Positions 1 to 12,240 of a stretch of 64,000 nt of DNA are shown here, piece after piece. Both the position numbers and the translations under genes were made by a program. Below the pieces are notes generated by a model. It did no database searches. It was given only the letters and a program-made list of their open reading frames with translations, and had not been told where the DNA came from. This DNA comes from Opitutia bacterium (lineage in GTDB: Bacteria; Verrucomicrobiota; Verrucomicrobiia; Opitutales; Opitutaceae). The stretch spans positions 306,854 through 370,853 of the forward strand of contig JACPIT010000004.1 in assembly GCA_016187945.1 (NCBI GenBank). The letters are read 5' to 3'. Position 1 is the first letter of the stretch; the number at the start of each line of letters is the position of its first letter.

Positions 1-1010
1 ACCACTTCAAGAAGGACTTCGACGCCGCCGACGTCCGCCAGTCGATCGACGCCGCCATCGCCGTCCGCGTGCAGGAGCCGGTGTTCGAGTCGCAGACGAA
101 AACCAAACTCGGCTCGACCGACATGGGCCCGAAGGGTCCGAGCCTGAAGGAATTCGTCGGCAAATTCATGCAGCAGTCGCTCGACGTCTACCTGCACAAG
201 AACCGCGAGGTCGCCGAAACCATCCGCCGCAAGATCGAGGAAAACGAGCACGAGCGCAAAGAACTCGCCGGCATCCGCAACATCGCCCGCGAGCGCGCGA
301 AAAAGGCCTCGCTCCACAACAAGAAGCTCCGCGACTGCCGCCTCCACCTCGGCGACCGCAACGAACGCGCCGAGCAGAGCACGCTCTTCATCGTCGAAGG
401 CGACTCCGCCGCCGGCTCGCTCACCTCCTGCCGCGACGTGCAGACGCAAGCCGTGTTCGCGTTGAAAGGAAAACCGCTCAACACCTACGGCCTCTCGAAG
501 AAGGTCATCTACGAGAACGAGGAATTCCACCTCCTCCAAGCCGCGTTGAACATCGAGGACGGCATGGACGGCCTCCGCTACAACCGGATCGTCATCGCCA
601 CCGACGCCGACGTCGACGGCATGCACATCCGGCTCTTGCTGATTTCGTTTTTCCTCCAGTTCTTCCCCGACCTCATCCGCAACGGCCACCTCTTCATCCT
701 CGAGACGCCGCTCTTCCGCGTGCGCAACAAAAAGAAGACGATCTATTGCTACGACGAGCGCGAGAAGCAGACCGCCATCGCCGAGCTCGGCGCCAGCCAT
801 GAAATCACACGCTTCAAAGGCCTCGGCGAAATCTCCTCGGGCGAGTTCAAGGATTTCATCGGCGAAAACATCCGCCTCGAACCGGTGAACCTGAACCACC
901 TCTACAGCACCGAGGAACTGCTCGCCTTCTTCATGGGCAAGAACACGCCCGAGCGCCAGGACTTCATCATCGGCAATCTCCGCGTCGAAAAGGATCTGGT
1001 CGAGGTGTGA
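1..1010 (+). CDS. parE: Type IIA topoisomerase subunit B, C-terminal part (ParE-like); 5' end lies outside the window
   Basis: The frame is open from base 3. Motifs: [22 protein letters not shown] and DADVDGMHI, and C-terminal FKGLGEIS...[12 protein letters not shown] ParC-like partner lies downstream. Confidence 0.85.
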
Positions 1011-1151
1011 GCCAGCGGCTCACGCCCGTTGAAGCTGGAAGTTTACGTCGAAGTTTTCGGGCGCCGGCTCCGTCGGTAGCGCCGGTCTCCGACCGGCGTC
1101 GACCTCCGTCTCTTCAACCTAAACTTTCAACTTAAACGGAAGGTCTGTTGC

Positions 1152-1922
1152 CTACGGCAACAAACCGTCGAGCCCCGCCGCCGCGAATTTGCTCCGCAGC
1201 TCCGTCAGCGCGCGCCGGCTCGCCGCGAGCGGCGGCGCGCCGCAATCGAGGTGAAAGAGCATCTCGTCGTCGCCGCTGCGCTCGATCTTCTTCACGCGCG
1301 CCAGATTCACGAGCACCTGCCGGTGGATGCGCACGAACTGCGCCTCGGGCAGAGTTTCCTCCCACGACTTCAGCGTGCGCAGCACCAGCAGTGTCTGTCC
1401 GCCGTCGAGGACCAGCTCCGTGTAGTTCTCCGCCGAGCGCACCGCGCAGATCGACGCCACCGGCACGAAACGCGTCGCCCCGTCCGTTTTCACGAACACC
1501 CGGTCGTCCGTCGTGAGCCGCTGTCCCGGCGCCGCCGCCGCCGCGGGCGCGACGGCGAGCGTGCGCGCCTCGCCGAGCCGTTGCAGCGTCGCCATCAGCC
1601 GCGAGCCGGAGACCGGCTTGAGCAGGTAGTCGAGCGCGTTCACCTCGAACGCCCGCAGCGCGAACCGATCGTAGGCCGTCACGAACACGATCTGCGCGCC
1701 GGGCTTCACGCTATCCAGCAAATCGAAGCCGCTGCCGCCCCGGAGCTGGATATCGAGAAACACGAGATCGTAATCCGCCCGGCCGAGCAGCGCGCGCGCG
1801 TCGTTCAACGTGCCCGCTTCGCCGGCGATCTCGATGCGCGGCGTCGCGCCGAGCAAGCGCCGCAGCTCGAGCCGGGCGAGCGGCTCATCATCGATCAACA
1901 AGGCACGGCGCGAGGGATTCAT
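1152..1922 (-). CDS. LytR/AlgR-family response regulator (REC + LytTR DNA-binding domain)
   Basis: REC motifs LLIDDEP, DLVFLDIQL and FVTAYDRFALRAFEVNALDYLLKP. C-terminal LytTR-like segment VRSAENYTELV...FVRIHRQVLVNL. ATG start checked at 1922. Confidence 0.9.
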   Translation of the reverse strand: MNPSRRALLIDDEPLARLELRRLLGATPRIEIAGEAGTLNDARALLGRADYDLVFLDIQLRGGSGFDLLDSVKPGAQIVFVTAYDRFALRAFEVNALDYLLKPVSGSRLMATLQRLGEARTLAVAPAAAAAPGQRLTTDDRVFVKTDGATRFVPVASICAVRSAENYTELVLDGGQTLLVLRTLKSWEETLPEAQFVRIHRQVLVNLARVKKIERSGDDEMLFHLDCGAPPLAASRRALTELRSKFAAAGLDGLLP

Positions 1923-2085
1923 GATCGGTGAATCAGGGTGGTCGCCGCTGTCCCAGCGGCGACGAGCGGGCCCGCGGCGGACACGACGGTGCGGGCCTCG
2001 AACGCGACAGACTCCAGCGCGGCGTCGCTGGGAACGACGACGACGCCCACCGCGCGCCTCACCGCTCGGATTTCATCCTGCCCGC

Positions 2086-5000
2086 TCACACCGCCACCTC
2101 GCTTCCGCTCCGGACCTTCTGCGGCAGCCGCAGCCGCACGCGCACCCAGCCCTCCTCGGTCACGATGTGCGGCCGGCACTGCGGGCCGTAGTAGCGCGCG
2201 AGCCGGCGGCGCAGATTTTCCAGCCCGATGTGCGTCGACTCCGGCGTCGGCGCCGCGCTGCCGAATTTTTCGCCCACCCACGTGCCGGTGTTCGCGATTT
2301 CGGCCACGAGCACGTCGTCGTCGAGCCGGATCGTCACCGCGACTTCGAGCACGCTCGGGCTCGTCTTGCCGCCGTATTTGATGGCGTTCTCGATCAGCGG
2401 AAGAAAAAGAAACGACGGCAAGCTCACCGCACACGCCGCGGGATCGACGTGGATGCGCGTCAGCAGCCCTTCCTGCCAGCGCGTGCGCTCGATGTCCAAA
2501 TACGCGCGCAACATCTCGACTTCCTCCGCCACGGTCGTCATCCCGTCGCCGCCGCGCGTGAGCGTCCCGCGGCAAAACTCCGAGAGCCGCGTCACCATCT
2601 CGCCCGCCGCGTCCGCGTTTGAAAACACGAGCGCGCGGATCGAGTTGAGCGAGTTGTAGAGGAAATGCGGGTTGAGCTGGTAGCGCAGCAACTCGAGTTG
2701 CGCCTTCTCCTCGGCGAGGCGCGCGGCGAGTTTCTCGTTCTGGTCGAGCCGGTGCAGTCGCTCGAGTTCGACGTTCTTGCGCGCCAGTTCGGCGGTGCGC
2801 ATCGCGATGACGTCCTCGAGCCGGTTGCGCTCGCGGAGCAGGCGGCGGAGGCGCCAGCGCACATACGTGAAAATCGCGAACGTGCCGCCGAAAAGATAAA
2901 ACGCCACCGCGGCCGTCGTGCGCCACCACGGCGCCAGCACGACGAACGCGAATCGCGCGGGCTCGCTCCAGCGCCCATCGGTCGAGCGTGCTCGCGTCTC
3001 GAACACGTAGGAGCCCTCCGGCAAATTGGTGAACGTCCGCTCGCCCGCGTTGGAACGTTGCAGCTCGTCATCGAGAAACCCGATCAAGCGCGATTCGTGC
3101 AACACCCCCGTTTCGCCGCCGAGGCCGGGAGTCGCAAACGTGAAGCGCACGGTGTTCTCCTTGAAACTCAGGTTCGTCGGCGCGACGCCGGCGCTGGCCA
3201 GCGCGCGCCGATCGCGCCCCACCTGGACGCTGCGCAGCAACGTCGCACCGATCGCGGGCGGCGGGTTCTGGCGCCACGCCGTGAGGTCCACGCGGCGCAA
3301 CTCCGATTGCCCGGCCATCCACAGAATTTCGCGCCCGTTCTGCTCCTCCCAAGCGAGCTGCGTCAGCGCGCCGAGTTGATCGAGGTCGGGCATCGGCAGA
3401 CGTTCCCAGCGGCCGTCGCGACCGTAGACGATCTCGCCCGGCTCCGGGCCGCGACTCTCGACGCTCATCCACAATCCGCCGTGCCCGTCCTCGGCGGCGA
3501 CCCGCACGAAAGCGTCCCCGCCGCCGAAACGATCGCCGTAGCGGCGCTCCGGCACGAAGCGCCGCGCCGTCGCGTCCCAGCGAAAAAATCCGCGGTGCGT
3601 CATGAACAACGGCGCGCCGCCCGCGAGCTTGAGCCACACCATGCGGCGCTCGACCGGCAGGCCCGCCGCCTCGGCGAAGCGCTCGATCTTCTGCGCCTTC
3701 GGCTCGGTGGGCGACGGCTCGATGCGCAACACGCCCGCGCTCGGCGTCGCGAGCCACAACGCGCCGTCGCGATCGATCGTCGGCGACCGCAATTCGCCGC
3801 TCAGCTCCGGCCAGATTCCCTCGAACTGCCACCCGCCGCCCGCGCGCCGCCACGACGCGACGCCGTTGATGAAAGTCGCGAGGATGCGCTCCGTCGCACC
3901 CGGCAGGCGCACCGGATCGCGCACGCTCCGCACTGCCGGCGGTCCCTCCAGTCGCGTCGATTTGCCGCCGCTGATCCACGTCAACCCTTCGAGCCCGCCC
4001 GCGAGCACCCCGTCGGGAAAACGCACGAGCTCGGTCGCGCGGTCGTTGTAGGCCTGACTCTCGCGCAGTCGCGGGCTGCCGGGCAGCCGTTCAGGCGCTT
4101 GCAGCTCGAAAATGCCGCGCGCCGTGCTGACGAGGATCTTGCCGTCGACGCGCGAGATCGACTCCGGTCCGCTCGACCCGAACCCGTGCGCGCTGCCGAA
4201 CACGCGCACCGGGGAGCGATAGTCGAGGCGCACCACGCCGTTGTCCGTGCCCAGCCAGAGCGCGCCGTGGCGGTCGAGATGCGCCGTGATCGCTGTGTCG
4301 CTCGGCAATCCCGCCGTGGCATCGAACGTTTCCTCGAGCCGGAAGTCCGGCCCCAACACCACCGCGCCGCCCTGCAAACTCGGAATCACGAGGCGCCCGC
4401 CCGGCAGCGCGAACGCCGCGTAAGGGCGCTTCGTTTTCAGCCACTCGTCGATTTCCATCGCCAACGGCGACAGCGTCGCGCCGTCGACGGTCACGACGCC
4501 ACGCCCGCCCGTCAGCGCGAGCAACCGTCCCTCCGCCGTGCGCCACAGGTGGCGCGGCAACATTGGATTCTCCGCGATCTGCTCCCACGTGCCGTCCGGA
4601 CCCGGCGTGAACCACGCGCGCTCGCGCGACACGATGAGCCGCCCGTCCACCGGAAACGCGCCGACGACGCCCTTCTCGCCAATCCGCCACACGTCGAATC
4701 GCGTGCCGTTCCAGCGCAACGTCGCCGCGGAGGTTTGAAAATACACTCCGTCCCGCATCGCGTGCAGCGACCACACGGCGCCGATGTCGCCCAACTCCGC
4801 CGGCACGCGCGCACGCAGCGACTCGTAGCGCAGTTGGCCGTCCGCACCGCCGACGAGCCGACCGAGTTCGTTGACGCCGCCGACCCACGCGATGCCGGCC
4901 GCGTCGACCTCGAGCGCGCGGATAAACGAGCCGCCCGGCACCGGAATCGCCTGCCAGCGCAACCCGTCGAATTCGAGCACCTGGTCGAGATTGCCGAAGA

Positions 5001-5289
5001 GCATCCGCCCGTCCGGCAGCTCCGCGATCCGCCAAATCTGGTGATGTCCGCGATACTCCCGCGGCAGGAAGAGGCGCGCCACCGGTTGGCCGCGCTCGAT
5101 CGCGCGCGTGCGCGAATCCGGCTCCGTCGCCACTCCGCTGGCGCCGGTCTCTGCCGCCGTCGCCGCTCCCGTCAGCGCGAGGCTCTCGCTGAAACAGGCG
5201 AGCGAAAACAGGAATGCGGAGGCGGGGCGCACGGGCGTGAGAAAAAGAAAACCGCCCGTCAGCGCGAGCCGGTTCGCGCCGCCGCCCAC
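2086..5289 (-). CDS. Sensor histidine kinase: periplasmic beta-propeller/Y_Y_Y-type sensor, TM segment, LytS-type His_kinase and HATPase
   Basis: LNPHFLYNSLNSIRALV (PF06580-type H box) and LPLIENAIKYG (N box), after a long repeat-rich extracytoplasmic region. The ORF is open to 5475, but the upstream gene stops at 5310. An in-frame GTG at 5289 gives a signal-like N-terminus, so the start is uncertain. Confidence 0.8.
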   Translation of the reverse strand: MGGGANRLALTGGFLFLTPVRPASAFLFSLACFSESLALTGAATAAETGASGVATEPDSRTRAIERGQPVARLFLPREYRGHHQIWRIAELPDGRMLFGNLDQVLEFDGLRWQAIPVPGGSFIRALEVDAAGIAWVGGVNELGRLVGGADGQLRYESLRARVPAELGDIGAVWSLHAMRDGVYFQTSAATLRWNGTRFDVWRIGEKGVVGAFPVDGRLIVSRERAWFTPGPDGTWEQIAENPMLPRHLWRTAEGRLLALTGGRGVVTVDGATLSPLAMEIDEWLKTKRPYAAFALPGGRLVIPSLQGGAVVLGPDFRLEETFDATAGLPSDTAITAHLDRHGALWLGTDNGVVRLDYRSPVRVFGSAHGFGSSGPESISRVDGKILVSTARGIFELQAPERLPGSPRLRESQAYNDRATELVRFPDGVLAGGLEGLTWISGGKSTRLEGPPAVRSVRDPVRLPGATERILATFINGVASWRRAGGGWQFEGIWPELSGELRSPTIDRDGALWLATPSAGVLRIEPSPTEPKAQKIERFAEAAGLPVERRMVWLKLAGGAPLFMTHRGFFRWDATARRFVPERRYGDRFGGGDAFVRVAAEDGHGGLWMSVESRGPEPGEIVYGRDGRWERLPMPDLDQLGALTQLAWEEQNGREILWMAGQSELRRVDLTAWRQNPPPAIGATLLRSVQVGRDRRALASAGVAPTNLSFKENTVRFTFATPGLGGETGVLHESRLIGFLDDELQRSNAGERTFTNLPEGSYVFETRARSTDGRWSEPARFAFVVLAPWWRTTAAVAFYLFGGTFAIFTYVRWRLRRLLRERNRLEDVIAMRTAELARKNVELERLHRLDQNEKLAARLAEEKAQLELLRYQLNPHFLYNSLNSIRALVFSNADAAGEMVTRLSEFCRGTLTRGGDGMTTVAEEVEMLRAYLDIERTRWQEGLLTRIHVDPAACAVSLPSFLFLPLIENAIKYGGKTSPSVLEVAVTIRLDDDVLVAEIANTGTWVGEKFGSAAPTPESTHIGLENLRRRLARYYGPQCRPHIVTEEGWVRVRLRLPQKVRSGSEVAV

Positions 5290-5309
5290 GGACGGACGGC
5301 GGCGCGTGC

Positions 5310-6344
5310 TCAGGTGCTGACCGGCATGAGCAAAAATCCTCGCAGCGCGCCGTCGCGCAGGCCCGTGCCCGCGACCCAGCCGGCGGAGTTCACGGCCACG
5401 GCCTTTTGCAGAACCCACTCCGGCGCGCCGCAGACGAGATCGGCCAGCGCGCGCATGCCGTCGGCCGGCGTCCAACGAAACGCCCCGCGCGCGCCGTTGT
5501 CGTCCATGAACCGGCCCACGACCATGCGCGCGTCGTTGGCCGCGAGCGCCTCGCTCTGGTGCGCCGCGCTGGAGTTCAAATCGTAGGTGCGCCCGCCTTC
5601 ATGGAGGAACGCGTGAATGTTGCCCTGCGGCGTCATGATGCGCCCGCACACGCGTCCGCCCGCGGTGAGCGCCGTGCCCCACACGCCGCCACCGGGCTCG
5701 GGCTTGATCGTCGTCACCGCATCGCCCCACCACAGTGTCGCCTGCGATTGCGTTTCAAAAATCCCGCACGCGCAATTCGCGAGGACCGTGCCCGAGTCGT
5801 TCAGCGCCGCGGCGACGGCGTTCACGCCGCTCGGCACGGGCAGGAACCGCGGCTCGCCGCCGTCGTGCAGAAACACCCGCCGCCGCGCGCGCCCGTCGGA
5901 GACGAACGTCACGTGCCCGGCTACCTCGCCGACGTTGTTGACGCCTGTCGCGCAGCTCTCCGCCTCCGGCCAAAACTCCGCACCCAAACCGCCGCGGTGC
6001 GCCGCCCACGCATGCAACGGCCCCGTGCCGACGCGCCGCTGGCCGGCCAGCAGGCCGTTGCCGCTCAAGCTCGTCAGCGGCACGCCGCCCACCGCGCTGG
6101 CGCATTCCACCAGCGCACCGCCTGCGCGCACGAAGCCGCGCACGCTCGCCGTCTTCGCCTGCCGCTCCGGCGCGTGGCCGTAGAGCGCGATCCGCCCGGC
6201 GTCGTTCAACGCCACGGGCAGCAACGGCACCCCCGGCGCGAGTTCGCCGAGATCCTCGAGGCGATACGCGACCGGAAATTCGGCGGGCCTTTCCCGCGGA
6301 GAAGCGGTCGCGAACGGCGGGTTGGACGTGGTCAGCGTGGACAT
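5310..6344 (-). CDS. HAF-family extracellular repeat protein (tentative)
   Basis: Repeated units of the type xxNDxGxVxG....HAF/AFxW (GNIHAFLHEGG, ARGAFRWTPADGMRALADL, LRGFLL). ATG MSTLTT checked at 6344. It lies 20 nt upstream of the kinase on the same strand. Confidence 0.55.
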   Translation of the reverse strand: MSTLTTSNPPFATASPRERPAEFPVAYRLEDLGELAPGVPLLPVALNDAGRIALYGHAPERQAKTASVRGFVRAGGALVECASAVGGVPLTSLSGNGLLAGQRRVGTGPLHAWAAHRGGLGAEFWPEAESCATGVNNVGEVAGHVTFVSDGRARRRVFLHDGGEPRFLPVPSGVNAVAAALNDSGTVLANCACGIFETQSQATLWWGDAVTTIKPEPGGGVWGTALTAGGRVCGRIMTPQGNIHAFLHEGGRTYDLNSSAAHQSEALAANDARMVVGRFMDDNGARGAFRWTPADGMRALADLVCGAPEWVLQKAVAVNSAGWVAGTGLRDGALRGFLLMPVST

Positions 6345-6496
6345 CGGCGACGCGCGAAGGTTGGCGCCGACCGTGAGCGCGCCGCGACGCGTGATTGACC
6401 AGCGGCTTCCGCGCGCTGACCAGCGGGAGACGGCCCCCGGATGCGAAGCGCCGCTTGACGGAGGCCTGCCCGCCTCCAAACCTCGCCGCTCACTCG

Positions 6497-8689
6497 ATGG
6501 CCAAGAAGAAACCGTCCAAAAAACCGAACGACCAAGCCGAGCTCCCGCTCAGCGGCGACGATGCGTCGCCGCAAGTGGCAAGTGCCAAGGATCAAGGTCC
6601 AAACGACAGCGCCACCGCCCCGGCGCCATCCGAGCCGTCAGCGCTCAGTCCTCAGTCCTCCGACGCACCGTCCTCCGAGTCCGCCGCGTCCGAAGCCCCG
6701 CGCCGCCCGAAGGGCCAGAAGGTCTACGACGAAGACGCGCCGCTCTCGAAGGCCTACAAGAACTGGTTCCTCGACTACGCCAGCTACGTCATCCTCGACC
6801 GCGCCGTCCCGCACCTCGACGACGGCCTGAAGCCCGTCCAACGCCGCGTGCTCCACACGCTCTGGGACATGGACGACGGCCGCTTCCACAAGGTCGCCAA
6901 CGTCGTCGGCGCCACGATGAAGCTCCACCCGCACGGCGACGCCTCGATCGGCGCCGCGCTCGTCGGCATCGCGCAACGCGGCTGGCTCATCGAGCCGCAA
7001 GGCAACTTCGGCAACACGATGACGGGCGACGAAGCCGCCGCCCCGCGTTACATCGAAGCGCGCCTCACGGCGTTCGCCCGCGAGGTGTTGTTCAACCCGA
7101 AGACGACGACGTGGCAGCTCAGCTACGACGGCCGCGCGAAGGAGCCGGTCACGCTCCCGGCCAAGTTCCCCATCGCACTCCTCGAAGGCGCCGACGGCAT
7201 CGCGGTCGGTCTGGCGACGAAGATTCTCCCGCACAATTTCAACGACCTCTGCCGCGCCGCGATCAATCACCTGCAGGGAAAAACCTTCCGCATCCTGCCG
7301 GACTTCCCCACGGGCGGCACGGCCGACTTCGCCGAATACAACGACGGCGAACGCGGCGGCAAGGTGAAGGTCCGCGCCAAGATCGAGGCGCGCTCCAAAT
7401 ATCTCCTCGCCGTCACCGAGCTGCCGTTCGGCGTCACCACCGAGTCGCTCATCGAGTCGATCCTCGCCGCCAACGCGAAGGGCAAGATCAAGATCAAGCA
7501 CGTCGACGACAACACCGCCGACGCGGTCGAGATCCTCATCCACCTCCCGCAAGGCTCCGAGCCTGAGAAAGTCATCCAGCAACTCTACGTTTTCACGAGT
7601 TGCCAGGTGCAGCTCAACCCCGCCGCCTGCGTGATCGTCCGCGGCGAAAACGGCGAAGACAAACCGCAGTTCCTCGGCGTCCGCGAAATCCTCAAGCGCA
7701 GCGTCGAGGCCACGCGCGAACTCCTGAAGCGCGAACTCGAGATCAAGCTCGGCGAACTCGAGCAGCAGTGGCACTGGGATTCGCTCGAACGCATTTTCAT
7801 CGAGAACCGCATCTACCACCGCATCGAGAAATCGAAGACGTGGGAAAGCGTGCTCGAGGAAATCCGCACCGGCTTGAAGCCGTTCGTGAAGAACCTGCGC
7901 CGCGAGGTGACCGACGAGGACATCACGCGCCTGACTGAAATCCGCATCAAGCGCATCTCCGCCTACAACCGCTTCCAGGCCGACGAAGCCATCAAGAAGA
8001 TCGAGGACGGCATCAAGGAGACGAAGGCCAACCTCAAGAACCTCACCGGCTACTCCGTCGCGTGGTTCGAGATGTTGCAGGAGAAATACGGCAAGGGCAT
8101 CAAACGGAAGACGAGCTACGACGAGATCGAGCAAATCGACGCCTCCGCCGTCGTCTCCGCCAACCAGCGCCTCTACGTGAACCGCGAAGACGGTTTCATC
8201 GGCCTGAACTGGCGCCAGCACGAATTCGTGCAGGAGTGCACGATCCTCGACAGCGTCCTCTGCATCATGCGTGACGGCTCGCTCAAGGTCTCGAAAGTCG
8301 CCGACAAGACTTTCATGGGCCGCGACATCATCCACGTCGCCATCTGGCCGAAGGACGGCGACCAGAATTTCTACACGATGGTCTATCAGGACGGAGAGAG
8401 CGGAAAAGCCTTCGCGAAAAAATTCCAGATCGGCGGCCTCTCGCGCGACAAGCTCTACCCGCTCGCGAAATCCGAGAACTCCAAAATCGTCTACCTCGAC
8501 GTCGCGAAGTCCGAGAAGGAAATGCCGAAGAGCCTCCACGTGAGCCTCGACGGCCGCAGCGGCGCGAGAGTGCGCGAACTGGACTTCGACCTGACGCCCG
8601 TCCCCGTGAGCACCCGCACCGCGAAAGGTCTCACGGTCACCAAGTGGGCCGTGAAGGAAGTGAAGCCGAACGATCTGGCGCTGAAGTGA
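6497..8689 (+). CDS. parC: DNA topoisomerase IV subunit A (Bacteroidetes/PVC-type ParC) with a low-complexity N-terminal extension
   Basis: DGLKPVQRRVLHTLWDMDDGRFHKVANVVGATMKLHPHGDASIGAALV. The catalytic Tyr region is PRYIEARL. ATG checked at 6497 (MAKKKPSKK). Confidence 0.85.
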   Translation: MAKKKPSKKPNDQAELPLSGDDASPQVASAKDQGPNDSATAPAPSEPSALSPQSSDAPSSESAASEAPRRPKGQKVYDEDAPLSKAYKNWFLDYASYVILDRAVPHLDDGLKPVQRRVLHTLWDMDDGRFHKVANVVGATMKLHPHGDASIGAALVGIAQRGWLIEPQGNFGNTMTGDEAAAPRYIEARLTAFAREVLFNPKTTTWQLSYDGRAKEPVTLPAKFPIALLEGADGIAVGLATKILPHNFNDLCRAAINHLQGKTFRILPDFPTGGTADFAEYNDGERGGKVKVRAKIEARSKYLLAVTELPFGVTTESLIESILAANAKGKIKIKHVDDNTADAVEILIHLPQGSEPEKVIQQLYVFTSCQVQLNPAACVIVRGENGEDKPQFLGVREILKRSVEATRELLKRELEIKLGELEQQWHWDSLERIFIENRIYHRIEKSKTWESVLEEIRTGLKPFVKNLRREVTDEDITRLTEIRIKRISAYNRFQADEAIKKIEDGIKETKANLKNLTGYSVAWFEMLQEKYGKGIKRKTSYDEIEQIDASAVVSANQRLYVNREDGFIGLNWRQHEFVQECTILDSVLCIMRDGSLKVSKVADKTFMGRDIIHVAIWPKDGDQNFYTMVYQDGESGKAFAKKFQIGGLSRDKLYPLAKSENSKIVYLDVAKSEKEMPKSLHVSLDGRSGARVRELDFDLTPVPVSTRTAKGLTVTKWAVKEVKPNDLALK

Positions 8690-8978
8690 AGGCCTGCCCG
8701 TAAGGTAGGGCGGGACCGCTGGGTTCGCCGTGGGCAGCGCTCACCGGTTGCGAGCCACAGCCGAATCACATCGCCCCAACGCCCCTTTGGGAGGGCGGCG
8801 CTCCGTCGCCGCCTGCCCGCCCGCACATCCACGTAAATGGCCCCGAATCGATCCCGGCCCAAAGCAATCCGGGCCACAAGAAGCACAAAAATCGCAAAGC
8901 CCGACCACCCGCGTGAAACCGCGGAAATGATACTCATAGTCCGTGGCCTGTTCTGCGCCGTTCGGCTATTCTCAGGAC

Positions 8979-9272
8979 GTGCGCCCTGAATCACCGACTC
9001 GCCCCGCCTACGCGATCTTCATCACCACTGTTTGCGAAGGCACTTTGCCTGCGTGGCACGACGAGAACGGGTTTCCGATGACCTACGCCACCGAACGCGA
9101 AGCGCAGCTCGAAATCGTCGACGACATCCAAGAGCGATTGTGCCAATTCATCGCTGGCGAACGCGATTTCGACGACGCCATAACCGTCGAAGATTTTGTC
9201 CTGCCTGTGAACGTGTGGCCAGACGGCTCGATTTCGACTGAGGACGGGCGCGTTTTCAGCAAATGCGAGTAG
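8979..9272 (+). CDS. Hypothetical small protein in the low-GC islet
   Basis: ORF 8943..9272. An in-frame GTG at 8979 is the preferred start. Codon usage differs from the flanks, and the stop abuts the stop of the convergent HNH gene. I recognise no family. Confidence 0.35.
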   Translation: MRPESPTRPAYAIFITTVCEGTLPAWHDENGFPMTYATEREAQLEIVDDIQERLCQFIAGERDFDDAITVEDFVLPVNVWPDGSISTEDGRVFSKCE

Positions 9273-10064
9273 CTACTGATGGAAAATCTCGCGGCGATGC
9301 ACCGCGAGATACTGTTCTTCGGGAAGAACGGCGTCTTTTGCCAAATGCAACGATTGTCCCTCATACGCTGAAAACGATTCCGCAACCGCCCGATGAGGCA
9401 GAAACGATTTCAGACGACGCGAGAGCTGGAGACGCAACTCATGATCGAACGTAATTAACCCCGCATCGAAGGCGGCATCGTGCAGCCGAGACAGCGAGAG
9501 CCCATTGCGGACATCGAGGCGCTCAGCTTCGAACTTTCCCCACGGCAGGATGTGCGACGCCACCAACAGTTCCCGCACCGCTAGTCCCGTCACACCACAG
9601 CGCCCACCGAAATTATTCAGCACCGCATCGCGGAAATATGCCTGACCGCGCCGCACTTTCACGTTGGCCAGTCGCTCCGTGTCGCCCTGCGGCATAATGC
9701 GTTTGCGCACGCCATCCGCCGCGACAACCTCCACTTCCTCCTTGAGCGAGGGATCGAACAACCGCTGAAACGCTTCTTCGCTCGCAGGCGCCGCTTCTCC
9801 AAGGTTCGCGTGAAATTCGGACCATACCGCCCGGTCAAGTGCGCTCGCGCCCGAAAGACCTCTTATGCCCCGCAGTCTCAGCGCCGGATCCAGAGACGCA
9901 AAATTGCAGAGCTTCATCGCGAGACTATTCGCTCCGCGGCCTAATTTCTCTGCGACCGCAATGATCGCCGGCTGTCGCGCGTGCATCTGGCCGAACGTCA
10001 GCTTGTGGTAGAGATTCAGCGCCACGAGCAACTCGTCGCGACGCCACCGTGAGCCGGAAGCCAT
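9273..10064 (-). CDS. HNH endonuclease (HNH_2/PF13391-like, 'putative restriction endonuclease' architecture)
   Basis: C-terminal CGVTGL...LVASHILPW...RNGLSLSRLHDAAFDAGLITFD, after a helical N-terminal region (RWRRDELLVALNLYHKL). ATG at 10064 checked; the ORF-track start at 10097 is TTG. Confidence 0.8.
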   Translation of the reverse strand: MASGSRWRRDELLVALNLYHKLTFGQMHARQPAIIAVAEKLGRGANSLAMKLCNFASLDPALRLRGIRGLSGASALDRAVWSEFHANLGEAAPASEEAFQRLFDPSLKEEVEVVAADGVRKRIMPQGDTERLANVKVRRGQAYFRDAVLNNFGGRCGVTGLAVRELLVASHILPWGKFEAERLDVRNGLSLSRLHDAAFDAGLITFDHELRLQLSRRLKSFLPHRAVAESFSAYEGQSLHLAKDAVLPEEQYLAVHRREIFHQ

Positions 10065-10071
10065 ATGGCGC

Positions 10072-10470
10072 CTATTCGGAATTTCGCCGGAAGGCAAATC
10101 GGCTCGGTTTTGTCGCGTAAACCTGCGCGTCGACTAGCCTCATCTGCCCACAATATCTAAACGCATCGCGGTGTAGTTCGCGAAAAAACAGATGCACTTC
10201 ATCACCGCTCTTGGCCGAGTTAAGAACTCGGTCTTCCGCAAAGTGGTCTTCCGGCCCGTCAATTCTCAGAACATCGTCCACGAATTGGTTCTGGTAGGCA
10301 GTATCGCCCGCACGTCGTTCTCGGGTGATAAAAAACAGGATCTTGTTGTCGTTAGCCGGCGTCACCAATCCACGAGAGAGAGCTTGGTAGCCTGAATAGC
10401 CCCAAATTGTCGCCAGATGGGGACGGGTGTAGTTGCGGCCGATCTGAATCGATTCAAACGAAACAGCCAT
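10072..10470 (-). CDS. Stand-alone DUF3427-like domain protein (putative modified-DNA reader)
   Basis: The pattern NYTRPHLATIWGY...ILFFITRE...YQNQF...HLFFRE...FRYCGQ matches my memory of the DUF3427 consensus (Y.R.d....W....lFVT..K...Y.D.F....LFVR....F.YLG). The gene ends 7 nt before the HNH start. Confidence 0.45.
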   Translation of the reverse strand: MAVSFESIQIGRNYTRPHLATIWGYSGYQALSRGLVTPANDNKILFFITRERRAGDTAYQNQFVDDVLRIDGPEDHFAEDRVLNSAKSGDEVHLFFRELHRDAFRYCGQMRLVDAQVYATKPSRFAFRRNSE

Positions 10471-10529
10471 GTCCGACAGTCCCAGCGCGATCGGCTTCGG
10501 TCAACCACCGGTTGTCGCTCAACTTTGCC

Positions 10530-10715
10530 TCGCCGAGAAACAACGCCGCCTTCTGGGCCGCGAAGCTCTCCGGCAACAAGGCCCGTGATCGGCGCGTCAA
10601 CCGCGAACTCCGCGCGCGTGGTTGGAAGGTCGTGCGCATCTGGGAGCACGAACTCACGCGCAAGAACGAGCGTCAGTTGCTCGCAAAGCTGCGACGCCAC
10701 GGATTGACCAGCTAG
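10530..10715 (+). pseudogene. vsr: 5'-truncated very-short-patch repair endonuclease (vsr) remnant
   Basis: PRNNAAFWAAKLSGNKARDRRVNRELRARGWKVVRIWEHEL matches the Vsr C-terminus (P.tN..FW..K...N..RD....L...GW.V...WE). The N-terminal catalytic half (the GCFWH region) is absent. Confidence 0.7.
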
Positions 10716-10812
10716 AAAGTCGGCGCCCGGCACAAGCCGGCAAAAGACGGACGATCGCGGCGTCCCTGCTTTCTCTGCGTTCTCCGCGCTCTCCGCGCTC
10801 TCCGCGTTTGAT

Positions 10813-10981
10813 CCTAAAAAACGCAGTTGAAACGCGAAGGACGCGGAGAGCACAGAGGAGAAACTCCGATCATTCCGGTCCGCGGCCCTTCACCCGGCAG
10901 GTGAGTCCTTCGGAGGCCGGATTTTCCCACGTTCTCCTCCGCGTCCTCCGCGCTCTCCGCGTTTCAACTGCGGAATTTAGG
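10813..10981. mobile_element. 169-bp MITE-like element, copy 1 (about 24-bp terminal inverted repeats)
   Basis: TIRs are cctaaaaaacgcagttgaaacgcg and cgcgtttcaactgcggaatttagg. It is near-identical to an inverted copy at 24909..25077. Confidence 0.6.
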
Positions 10982-11508
10982 TTCATTCACGAAGCGCTTT
11001 TCCCATCAAGCCGCCTTCCGAATGCGCCGATAGAATTCCTGTCCGCCGGTTCCTTCAGGAAACTCATCAGGCATTCTATTCCGATACATGCCGCTGCGAC
11101 CACGCCTCAGTAGTCCCACTCCGTCCGCGGAGCTTAAACGGTGACGAATGTCGGTCGCTAGGGCTTGGCCACCGAATTGGTCAACTGGCCTGAGCGAACC
11201 GGCGGACAGCTCTCTCTCGTCGCCCACCGCGCGTTCGCACGCAGTCGCATCGGCGCCGCGTTCGCATCGCCAGCCACATTTTCGCCACGGGGCGCCGCCG
11301 CGCAAAGTGCAACCCGCTGCTACGCGACGCCGTCGCGTCGCCTTTAATCGGTCGAATGATCTGGCCCGCGAGCCGATTGCCCGTTCGCGTCCGCCGGCGG
11401 CGCGATGGTCTTCGCGTTTTGCCCGTCGCGCCGATAACCTGCGGACGCCAGCCGAGAACAACGGAGGACAACATTCCCCCGCTCAACGCCGGCAAAATCA
11501 AGTTCGTC

Positions 11509-12240
11509 ATGAAAAAGTTTCTTCAAACGTCAGTTGCCCTCTTTCTCGTCACCGCACCTCTTGCGCTGCTCGCTTCCCCCGCCACCGACCGCAAGGTCGA
11601 GAACGCGGCGCGCCAATCCTACAACTACCGCGCAGTGCTCGATAACGCCGTCACCGCGCAATGCGTCGACGGTCACGTCACCCTCTCCGGGGTGGTGCCG
11701 GATGCCGACGCCCAGGCGCTCGCGGCCGACACCGCGGCCAATCTCCCCGGCGTCACCAAGGTCACCAACAACGTCACGATCAAGCCCGCCTACACCGAGC
11801 ACTCGGACGCGTGGATCGCCTTCAAGATCCGCAGCCGCCTGCTCGTGAAGGCCAATGTCAGCGCGTTCACCACCGTCACCGTGCAGGACGGCGTCGCGAC
11901 GCTCAGCGGCACCGCCAGCACCCTGGCGCAAAAGGAACTGACCGGCATCTACGCCGCCGAGATCGATCATGTGAAGTCGGTGACGAACAACCTCGCCGTC
12001 ATGGACCAGCCGACCCTCAGCGAGAAGGTCGACGACGCCTCCATCACCGCGCAGGTGAAATTCGCCCTGCTCAGCCATCGCTCCACCAGCGCCCTGCACA
12101 CCACCATCGCCACCACTGACGGTGTCGTGCTGATTTCCGGCAACGCAGCGTCCGCCGCCGAGAAATCCCTCGTGACCAAACTCGCGAAGGACGTGCGCGG
12201 CACGGCATCGGTGACCAACAACATGGCGGTCAAGAGCTGA
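11509..12240 (+). CDS. Periplasmic BON-domain protein (OsmY-like, three BON repeats)
   Basis: Signal peptide MKKFLQTSVALFLVTAPLALLA. The unit V.V.dGvvTLSG.v......A...A..v.GV..V.N.l occurs three times. ATG checked at 11509. Confidence 0.8.
   Translation: MKKFLQTSVALFLVTAPLALLASPATDRKVENAARQSYNYRAVLDNAVTAQCVDGHVTLSGVVPDADAQALAADTAANLPGVTKVTNNVTIKPAYTEHSDAWIAFKIRSRLLVKANVSAFTTVTVQDGVATLSGTASTLAQKELTGIYAAEIDHVKSVTNNLAVMDQPTLSEKVDDASITAQVKFALLSHRSTSALHTTIATTDGVVLISGNAASAAEKSLVTKLAKDVRGTASVTNNMAVKS

Follow-up and report, generated by a model that had tools for sequence, protein, structure and literature searches.

Do two short, adjacent genes in the genome of an Opitutia bacterium (Verrucomicrobiota, Opitutaceae), one for a candidate reader of modified cytosine and the other for an HNH nuclease, encode a single restriction enzyme in two pieces? 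The genes lie on the minus strand of a 64,000-nucleotide (nt) stretch of DNA (assembly GCA_016187945.1, contig JACPIT010000004.1, positions 306,854 to 370,853; hereafter the window), and our favoured answer, to which we assign a probability of roughly 0.6, is that their products make up a two-subunit, modification-dependent (type IV-like) restriction endonuclease. In this predicted enzyme, the 132-amino-acid (aa) product of the upstream gene would be a free-standing SRA-fold reader, of the type that serves SauUSI as its target recognition domain (TRD; DUF3427), that binds DNA carrying 5-methylcytosine (5mC) or 5-hydroxymethylcytosine (5hmC) and probably flips the modified base into a pocket; the 263-aa product of the downstream gene would supply the catalytic HNH_2 His-Me finger, with an N-terminal all-alpha domain as the probable adaptor. 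Reader and nuclease would probably be made from one transcript with coupled translation and act as a complex, cutting modified incoming DNA near the sites bound by the reader, in a nuclease step expected to be independent of ATP. We infer, from the genes and their relatives, that the two proteins associate physically, that cleavage depends on modification and that the pair serves in defence.

The candidate reader was placed by its predicted fold and by its relatives. All of the motifs quoted for it in an earlier reading of this DNA from the letters alone (hereafter the sequence-only reading) are present (NYTRPHLATIWGY, KILFFITRE, YQNQF and HLFFRELHRDAFRYCG), and scans of the 132-aa protein with Pfam, NCBIfam and PADLOC gave no significant match. 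Its AlphaFold2 model, built from the family alignment, has a predicted local distance difference test (pLDDT) value of 87 and a predicted template modelling score (pTM) of 0.83, and a Foldseek search of the PDB with this model returned SauUSI as the top solved match (7CLG, E = 1.6 × 10−5, TMq 0.65), followed by SRA domains from SUVH5 and UHRF1 and, after these, by the domains with which AbaSI, AspBHI and PvuRts1I read 5(h)mC; placement in an unrelated fold, an outcome that the sequence-only reading had named as refuting its proposal, did not occur. The aligned residues are not part of the Foldseek output; because SRA domains rank next, the match to 7CLG probably falls in the SauUSI TRD (residues 806–953), which has an SRA fold and gives the enzyme its 5mC/5hmC specificity (PMC7913695), bearing out what the sequence-only reading had said of DUF3427 as a reader of modified cytosine. 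Ten close homologues share 48–84% identity with the window protein, and PF11907 (DUF3427) is matched by 7 of the 11 family members (best E = 1 × 10−8); three homologues exceed the gathering score of 27.7 bits (P0007, 35.1 bits; P0009, 35.3 bits; P0010, 28.7 bits; P and L numbers denote the proteins and loci compared here), with all matches limited to positions 128–252 of the 280-position profile and the whole domain not covered. The earlier assignment of the protein to DUF3427 holds for the family and for the SauUSI-like fold, but not for the window protein itself, which is unmatched, nor for the domain outside those positions. Given the confident SRA-like model and the PF11907 matches of its homologues, we regard the 132-aa protein as a probable SRA-like reader that is the counterpart of DUF3427's C-terminal half, on good fold evidence and a transitive sequence link, and predict that it binds modified cytosine (5mC/5hmC).

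The 263-aa protein carries an HNH_2 core that the sequence-only reading had called unambiguous, and it was recognized as such by Pfam (PF13391, E = 7 × 10−10, 39 bits against a cut-off of 21), with its three nuclease motifs in place (Table 1) and its catalytic residues H171, N187, H195 and D196 invariant in an alignment of 50 homologues. Its closest solved relative by sequence is the EVE–HNH type IV enzyme VcaM4I (6YEX, E = 1 × 10−13), which also ranked first when the nuclease model was searched with Foldseek, TagI being a weak third (E = 0.28). More than 4,550 homologues of the nuclease were found, and the full-length protein matches the PADLOC profile PDLC04132 ('HNH'; E = 1 × 10−82), for a system that the database does not name. 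Residues ~9–103 form the all-alpha domain (AlphaFold2 pLDDT ~90), for which Foldseek found no resembling solved structure. This domain is probably an adaptor contacting the reader or DNA, because the same domain joins reader to HNH_2 in the fused proteins described below. A known reader (for example, a sulfur-binding domain) at the N terminus of the nuclease was considered and rejected: NCBIfam PT-DNA_restrict covers the HNH part only, and Foldseek gave no match.

Comparisons across genomes argue strongly that reader and nuclease would work together. The 7-nt gap between the two minus-strand genes, reported by the sequence-only reading and seen in both the open reading frame (ORF) listing and the sequence, likely couples their translation, and a survey of neighbours, the second check that the sequence-only reading had named, bore the pairing out by finding the split pair in three further contigs, with gaps of 12 nt (L001), 7 nt (L138) and 6 nt (L139) and readers 84%, 81% and 68% identical to that of the window. 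A looser version with a longer spacer occurs in L013; in L005 a different HNH (PF01844) gene lies immediately upstream of the reader gene, an independent split pairing; and in L010 and L036 the nuclease part beside the reader is fragmented. Among the split loci the stop positions differ and every downstream gene has its own ATG, and from the window to L139 synonymous divergence has reached saturation. The ratio of nonsynonymous to synonymous substitution rates (dN/dS) is 0.07–0.25 for the reader where the synonymous rate (dS) is unsaturated (0.25 against L001) and 0.09–0.15 for the nuclease, values that show the split form to be kept under purifying selection; since both genes combine low dN/dS with many homologues, they are more than a chance pair of ORFs. 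Programmed readthrough or frameshifting to give a fusion was ruled out, because the frame relation of the two ORFs varies among the four split loci (+1, 0, +1, 0), which excludes a conserved recoding event.

The same two parts also occur as one chain. Two proteins of 391 aa (P0014) and 392 aa (P0086) consist of the reader, the same all-alpha domain (E = 6 × 10−14) and HNH_2, arranged as the genes are in the window, and this reader–nuclease fusion was found in five genome loci (L009, L019, L024, L029 and L045) from Polaromonas, Burkholderiales, Spirosoma, Cytophagales and a beta-proteobacterium, making seven proteins or loci in the survey. An exhaustive profile search of a representative library yielded 649 relatives of the reader, the best 150 of which include 71 stand-alone proteins and 69 with a C-terminal extension, the latter among 79 multi-domain relatives. 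On these 79 fused relatives we found HNH_2 (23), HNH PF01844 (22), AAA_5 (2), EVE (2) and a DUF3883-type nuclease (1), and 22 of them match PF11907. The window nuclease is only 31–34% identical to the fused nuclease parts and 64–84% identical to stand-alone ones; its nearness to the stand-alone forms means that the pairing arose or persisted independently, rather than through recent breakage of that fusion.

How the pair came to lie where it does is suggested by its composition and by the gene next to it. As the sequence-only reading had observed, the pair occupies a low-GC patch with different codon usage: positions 9,273–10,470 have a GC content of 57.2% against 66.7 ± 2.8% for segments of 1.2 kb, the lowest of all such segments, and GC content at third codon positions (GC3) is 0.56 for the reader and 0.66 for the nuclease against 0.87–0.88 for the neighbouring topoisomerase IV (topo IV) and BON-domain genes, which points to a horizontal origin. 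Abutting the reader gene, and missed by the sequence-only reading, is a pseudogene remnant of vsr, the gene for a very-short-patch repair endonuclease (TIGR00632, E = 4 × 10−11; PADLOC Vsr, E = 1 × 10−6), comprising the C-terminal ~60 residues only, 73% identical (tblastn) to residues 83–138 of the intact Vsr of L071; the catalytic N-terminal half is missing and no intact vsr is present. Relative to L071, the 5′ ~284 nt of vsr have been swapped for 475 nt that hold the reader gene, and syntenic relatives have vsr immediately next to the nuclease gene. This swap indicates that the reader gene came second, inserted just upstream of a nuclease gene already resident there, and that vsr lost its function. 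A vsr gene is a hallmark of genomes that methylate cytosine to 5mC, and the remnant implies that the lineage of the window once did so.

No ORF of the 64-kb window showed C5-methyltransferase (C5-MTase) motifs or similarity to five C5-MTase seeds, and the three ORFs with a chance (D/N/S)PP(Y/F/W) motif, the candidate N6 signature, proved to be an acetyl-CoA hydrolase and two proteins without a Pfam match, none with a methyltransferase domain. The sequence-only reading had taken the lack of a methyltransferase to fit a type IV logic; the observation stands for all 64 kb, but the argument passes over the vsr remnant and the restriction–modification (R-M)-like surroundings of the closest relatives of the nuclease. 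Taken as a whole, the reader, vsr and methyltransferase context is compatible with a change of logic, from modification-protected to modification-dependent, or else with two genes acting independently. A promoter scan of positions 8,600–11,400 found nothing.

Table 1. Positions of the reader–nuclease pair and adjoining features in the 64,000-nt window (position 1 is the first nucleotide of the window).
Feature	Position	Strand	Basis or remark
Reader gene, 132 aa	10470..10072	-	ORF listing and sequence; stop TAG at 10074-10072
Spacer, 7 nt	10071..10065	-	GGCGCCA on the coding strand, between reader stop and HNH start
Nuclease gene, 263 aa	10064..9273	-	ORF listing; ATG at 10064
N-terminal all-alpha domain of the nuclease (residues ~9-103)	9756..10040	-	AlphaFold2 secondary structure
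HNH_2 catalytic core (residues 156-207, CGVTG...SHILPW...RNGLSL...LHDAAFD)	9444..9599	-	Pfam
Small conserved ORF, ~64-109 aa (start uncertain)	8943..9272	+	Recurs beside the nuclease family
vsr pseudogene remnant	~10506-10715	+	TIGR00632, PADLOC Vsr, tblastn
Topoisomerase IV subunit A gene	6395-8689		Flanking gene
BON-domain gene	11356-12240		Flanking gene

Several results weigh against a two-subunit enzyme, and they concern both the identity of the reader and its tie to the nuclease. PF11907 did not match the window's 132-aa protein at E ≤ 1, nor at E ≤ 10, and HMMER profiles of the reader family (from two alignments) did not find SauUSI among PDB sequences, yielding chance matches only (a deoxyribosyltransferase and antibody chains), so that what ties the reader to SauUSI is its fold, together with transitive Pfam matches. 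In approximately 28 of 45 genome loci the reader stands alone with no nearby nuclease, so the reader is able to exist without a linked one; among the 118 neighbouring ORFs of these 28 loci no recurrent nuclease partner was found; housekeeping genes made up most of the neighbours, and integrases and transposases a few. Around the nuclease, a survey of 80 metagenomic loci centred on its closest homologues (64–75% identity) showed the reader in only two, both times convergent with the nuclease gene, and vsr adjoining the nuclease in 32. C5-MTase-like ORFs stood beside the nuclease in 20 of the 80 loci by single-seed phmmer and in 9 by a strict motif scan (approximate frequencies, a jackhmmer count having been contaminated by antisense ORFs that overlap the HNH gene). 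Two loci (L135 and L136, positions 172–3,820) have an operon of HATPase_c_3 (GHKL), Methyltransf_35, DNA_methylase and Vsr genes divergent from the nuclease gene, which looks like a classical or paraMORC-type R-M context and not a type IV one; GHKL (MORC/paraMORC) neighbourhoods of this kind have been described as R-M systems (Iyer et al. 2008, PMC2292703). Lastly, the two genes diverged unequally between the window and L001 (6,001–7,197), with dS of 0.32 for the reader and 1.44 for the nuclease, a four-fold difference at similar protein identity (84% and 83%), which hints at recombination or separate histories.

Several of these results are what would be expected if reader and nuclease were independent neighbours, the nuclease being a long-standing resident of a vsr/C5-MTase (R-M or paraMORC-type) locus that acts alone or with partners encoded elsewhere, and the reader a separate small 5mC-binding protein that landed in vsr, with their adjacency reflecting the clustering of genes at a variable defence spot. 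Besides the 78 of 80 nuclease loci that lack a reader, this explanation draws on the small ORF of Table 1, homologues of which adjoin the nuclease in 25 of the 80, and on the nuclease and small ORF at the same topo IV-adjacent position in related genomes that lack the reader. It accords poorly with the end-to-end fusions of reader and the same two-domain nuclease in at least seven proteins or loci, with an HNH-type nuclease on 45 of the 79 fused relatives of the reader, with the co-directional 6–12-nt spacing kept in four contigs across saturated synonymous divergence, and with the hazard that a classical restriction endonuclease would pose to a cell with no methyltransferase in 64 kb. We consider independence rather unlikely.

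A further possibility, tentative and in our estimation unlikely, is that the 263-aa nuclease is programmed by its partners, adjacent genes setting the rule that separates self from non-self. At the topo IV-adjacent loci of relatives, the nuclease with its GHKL ATPase, methyltransferases and Vsr would follow a modification-protected logic; in the lineage of the window those genes would have been lost, vsr truncated and the reader inserted 7 nt upstream, the truncation and insertion having flipped the logic to a modification-dependent one. If so, the locus would be a captured intermediate between an R-M-type nuclease and a type IV enzyme, of which the covalent fusions elsewhere would be the end point; and should the nuclease in a vsr/Dcm context prove to be blocked by methylation, the locus would record a flip of self/non-self logic on one nuclease.

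The same replacement could be read in the opposite sense, the SRA-like protein acting as a brake that, attached to methylated self DNA or to the nuclease itself, holds back or diverts the HNH nuclease and shields 5mC sites instead of targeting them, in place of the lost methyltransferase and vsr functions. The reader gene does sit where the 5′ half of vsr was, methylation genes usually accompany members of the nuclease family, and one locus (L129) has a truncated reader convergent with the nuclease where a near-identical locus (L119) has a C5-MTase-like ORF. We nonetheless find a brake very unlikely, since SRA, EVE and DUF3427 domains joined to nucleases target modified DNA in all the characterized cases cited here (SauUSI, VcaM4I, TagI and the McaZI group; PMC6765204, PMC7913695), and a covalent fusion in the order reader–nuclease is how targeting enzymes are built, whereas inhibitors are not. 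Highly improbable is the decay of a fused reader–HNH gene that a recent nonsense or frameshift mutation has split and left without function, to which the existence of fused relatives, the fragmented nuclease parts in L010 and L036 and the adjacent vsr pseudogene might point, but which fails against two intact ORFs, each with its own ATG, and intact catalytic residues, recent pseudogenization being ruled out by dN/dS of 0.07–0.25 with saturated dS, by the split in four contigs with differing stop positions and spacers, and by a window nuclease that belongs to the stand-alone and not the fused clade.

A two-subunit, modification-dependent enzyme, the reading we prefer, would have clear relatives among described systems. 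Nearest are single-chain DUF3427 + HNH_2 proteins (His-Me finger group 6; for example, WP_052015257 and WP_052747245), often near methyltransferases and with a proposed role in restriction (Jablonska et al. 2017, PMC5714182); our literature search found no biochemical characterization of such fusions. They share reader family, nuclease family and N-to-C order with the window pair, and P0014, P0086, P0031 and P0035 are of this kind. The window differs from these single chains in having reader and nuclease as separate polypeptides, in a reader that spans no more than the C-terminal (SRA) half of DUF3427 as modelled over 280 positions, and in the extra all-alpha N-terminal domain of its nuclease.

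SauUSI, the best structural match of the reader, is an ATP-dependent type IV enzyme (PLD nuclease, SF2 helicase, coupler and SRA-fold TRD), whereas the window pair has neither a helicase/ATPase nor a PLD nuclease and uses HNH_2 instead. VcaM4I (EVE–HNH) and TagI (SRA–HNH) have a homologous HNH_2 domain and the same logic of a PUA/SRA-type reader with an HNH_2 nuclease, but are single chains with the reader at the N terminus, where the window nuclease has an unrelated all-alpha domain and its reader in trans. The class of modification-dependent (type IV/IIM) reader–HNH enzymes as a whole (TagI, VcaM4I and ScoMcrA) consists of one polypeptide, in contrast to the two ORFs of the window with a stop codon and 7 nt between them, and shares with the window (across its 64 kb) the absence of a cognate methyltransferase beside the nuclease. 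McrBC is a two-subunit type IV system of a reader-GTPase (McrB, with an AAA+ GTPase motor) and a nuclease (McrC, of the PD-(D/E)XK fold). Like the window pair, it has reader and nuclease as separate polypeptides from adjacent genes; its reader fold differs, and an AAA_5 domain occurs on just 2 of the 79 fused relatives of the window reader.

Members of the McaZI/BwiMMI/EfaL9I group (DUF3427 + PD-(D/E)XK/DUF3883) bind 5mC/5hmC DNA, restrict T4gt and often lie near C5-MTases in defence islands (PMC6765204); they have a DUF3427-type reader like that of the window, but a different nuclease fold on a single chain, an architecture also seen in one relative of the window reader (P0017). The GHKL–C5-MTase–Vsr–HNH neighbourhoods (PMC2292703) house the closest relatives of the window nuclease (L135 and L136), and the window, which keeps the vsr remnant, differs from them in having lost the ATPase, the methyltransferases and a functional vsr and gained a 5mC-type reader. 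Compared with type II m5C R-M systems with Vsr, the window has neither an adjacent C5-MTase nor an intact vsr.

In the literature we found no account of a split DUF3427-like reader/HNH_2 pair, nor any of the all-alpha candidate adaptor or of a setting in which a reader replaces vsr. The sequence-only reading had suggested that the split architecture was undescribed, which agrees with this search but overstates its novelty: some SauUSI-like systems have their specificity domain on a protein of its own, encoded close by (Lutz et al. 2019, PMC6765204), a precedent for the split-reader principle. Given that such separate specificity proteins and DUF3427–HNH fusions have both been published, the novelty of the pair is modest.

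The known type IV enzymes that combine a reader of modified bases with an HNH nuclease consist of one chain. A split form that occurs naturally and is kept under selection would demonstrate that a reader can act in trans, and would make the contributions of reader and nuclease separable, readers swappable and the role of the all-alpha domain testable. For annotation, hundreds of small stand-alone DUF3427-like proteins could become candidate 5mC/5hmC readers. That the nuclease family is tied to vsr and C5-MTases elsewhere and to a 5mC reader here bears on how modification-dependent enzymes arise from, or replace, modification-protected ones. Practical value is modest, as candidate 5mC/5hmC-dependent nucleases or binding modules for epigenetic tools.

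Beyond the pair itself, the spot next to topo IV, common to the window and several of the nuclease loci (protein identity 81–87%), is a variable defence islet across the clade. The nuclease and small ORF are always there in the relatives and the reader is absent; the nuclease neighbours in L131–L134 are Vsr and the small ORF only, and a PIN toxin–antitoxin pair separates the small ORF from the topo IV gene in L060 as well as in L135 and L136. In the window, the small ORF and the nuclease gene run towards each other with 0 nt left in between, and Pfam, PADLOC and NCBIfam scans of it gave no match. In the 25 of 80 nuclease loci that have a homologue of it, this is placed either convergent and downstream of the nuclease or upstream on the opposite strand beside vsr; further homologues occur in L001, L005 (two copies), L040 and L139. 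The small ORF may serve to regulate or inhibit the nuclease. In L119, the C5-MTase-like ORF occupies positions 4,789–5,547 (minus strand), and at that site in L129 a 5′-truncated reader gene (4,800–5,132, minus strand) is followed by a CATCCAA tandem repeat, which looks like the replacement of methyltransferase and reader for one another at one site.

Around the reader, vsr was found nearby in 8 of 51 reader-centred loci, and a set of recurrent uncharacterized genes adjoins stand-alone readers in L003 (6,551–10,033), L004 (5,509–8,976) and L040 (1,356–3,416). All three encode a protein of ~640–680 aa; L003 and L004 also encode proteins of ~250–280 aa, one of them a DUF6339 protein (L004), and in L004 the set is accompanied by a C5-MTase and Vsr. 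This set may be an undescribed methylation-linked system.

In the window, the sole tRNA gene, for tRNA-Gly (CCC; 1,983–2,067, minus strand), lies ~7 kb from the module and is not obviously its integration site. None of the related loci compared has a syntenic BON gene, and the border of the island on that side is thus undefined. Positions 10,764–10,997 are intergenic and rich in repeats, among them tandem units of 9 nt (CTCCGCGCT-like) and an imperfect inverted repeat of 66 nt, and the following 210 nt (10,998–11,207) are 95.7% identical to positions 3,814–4,023 of L001, against only ~80% for the flanking genes, which suggests a small mobile or repetitive extragenic palindromic (REP)-like element.

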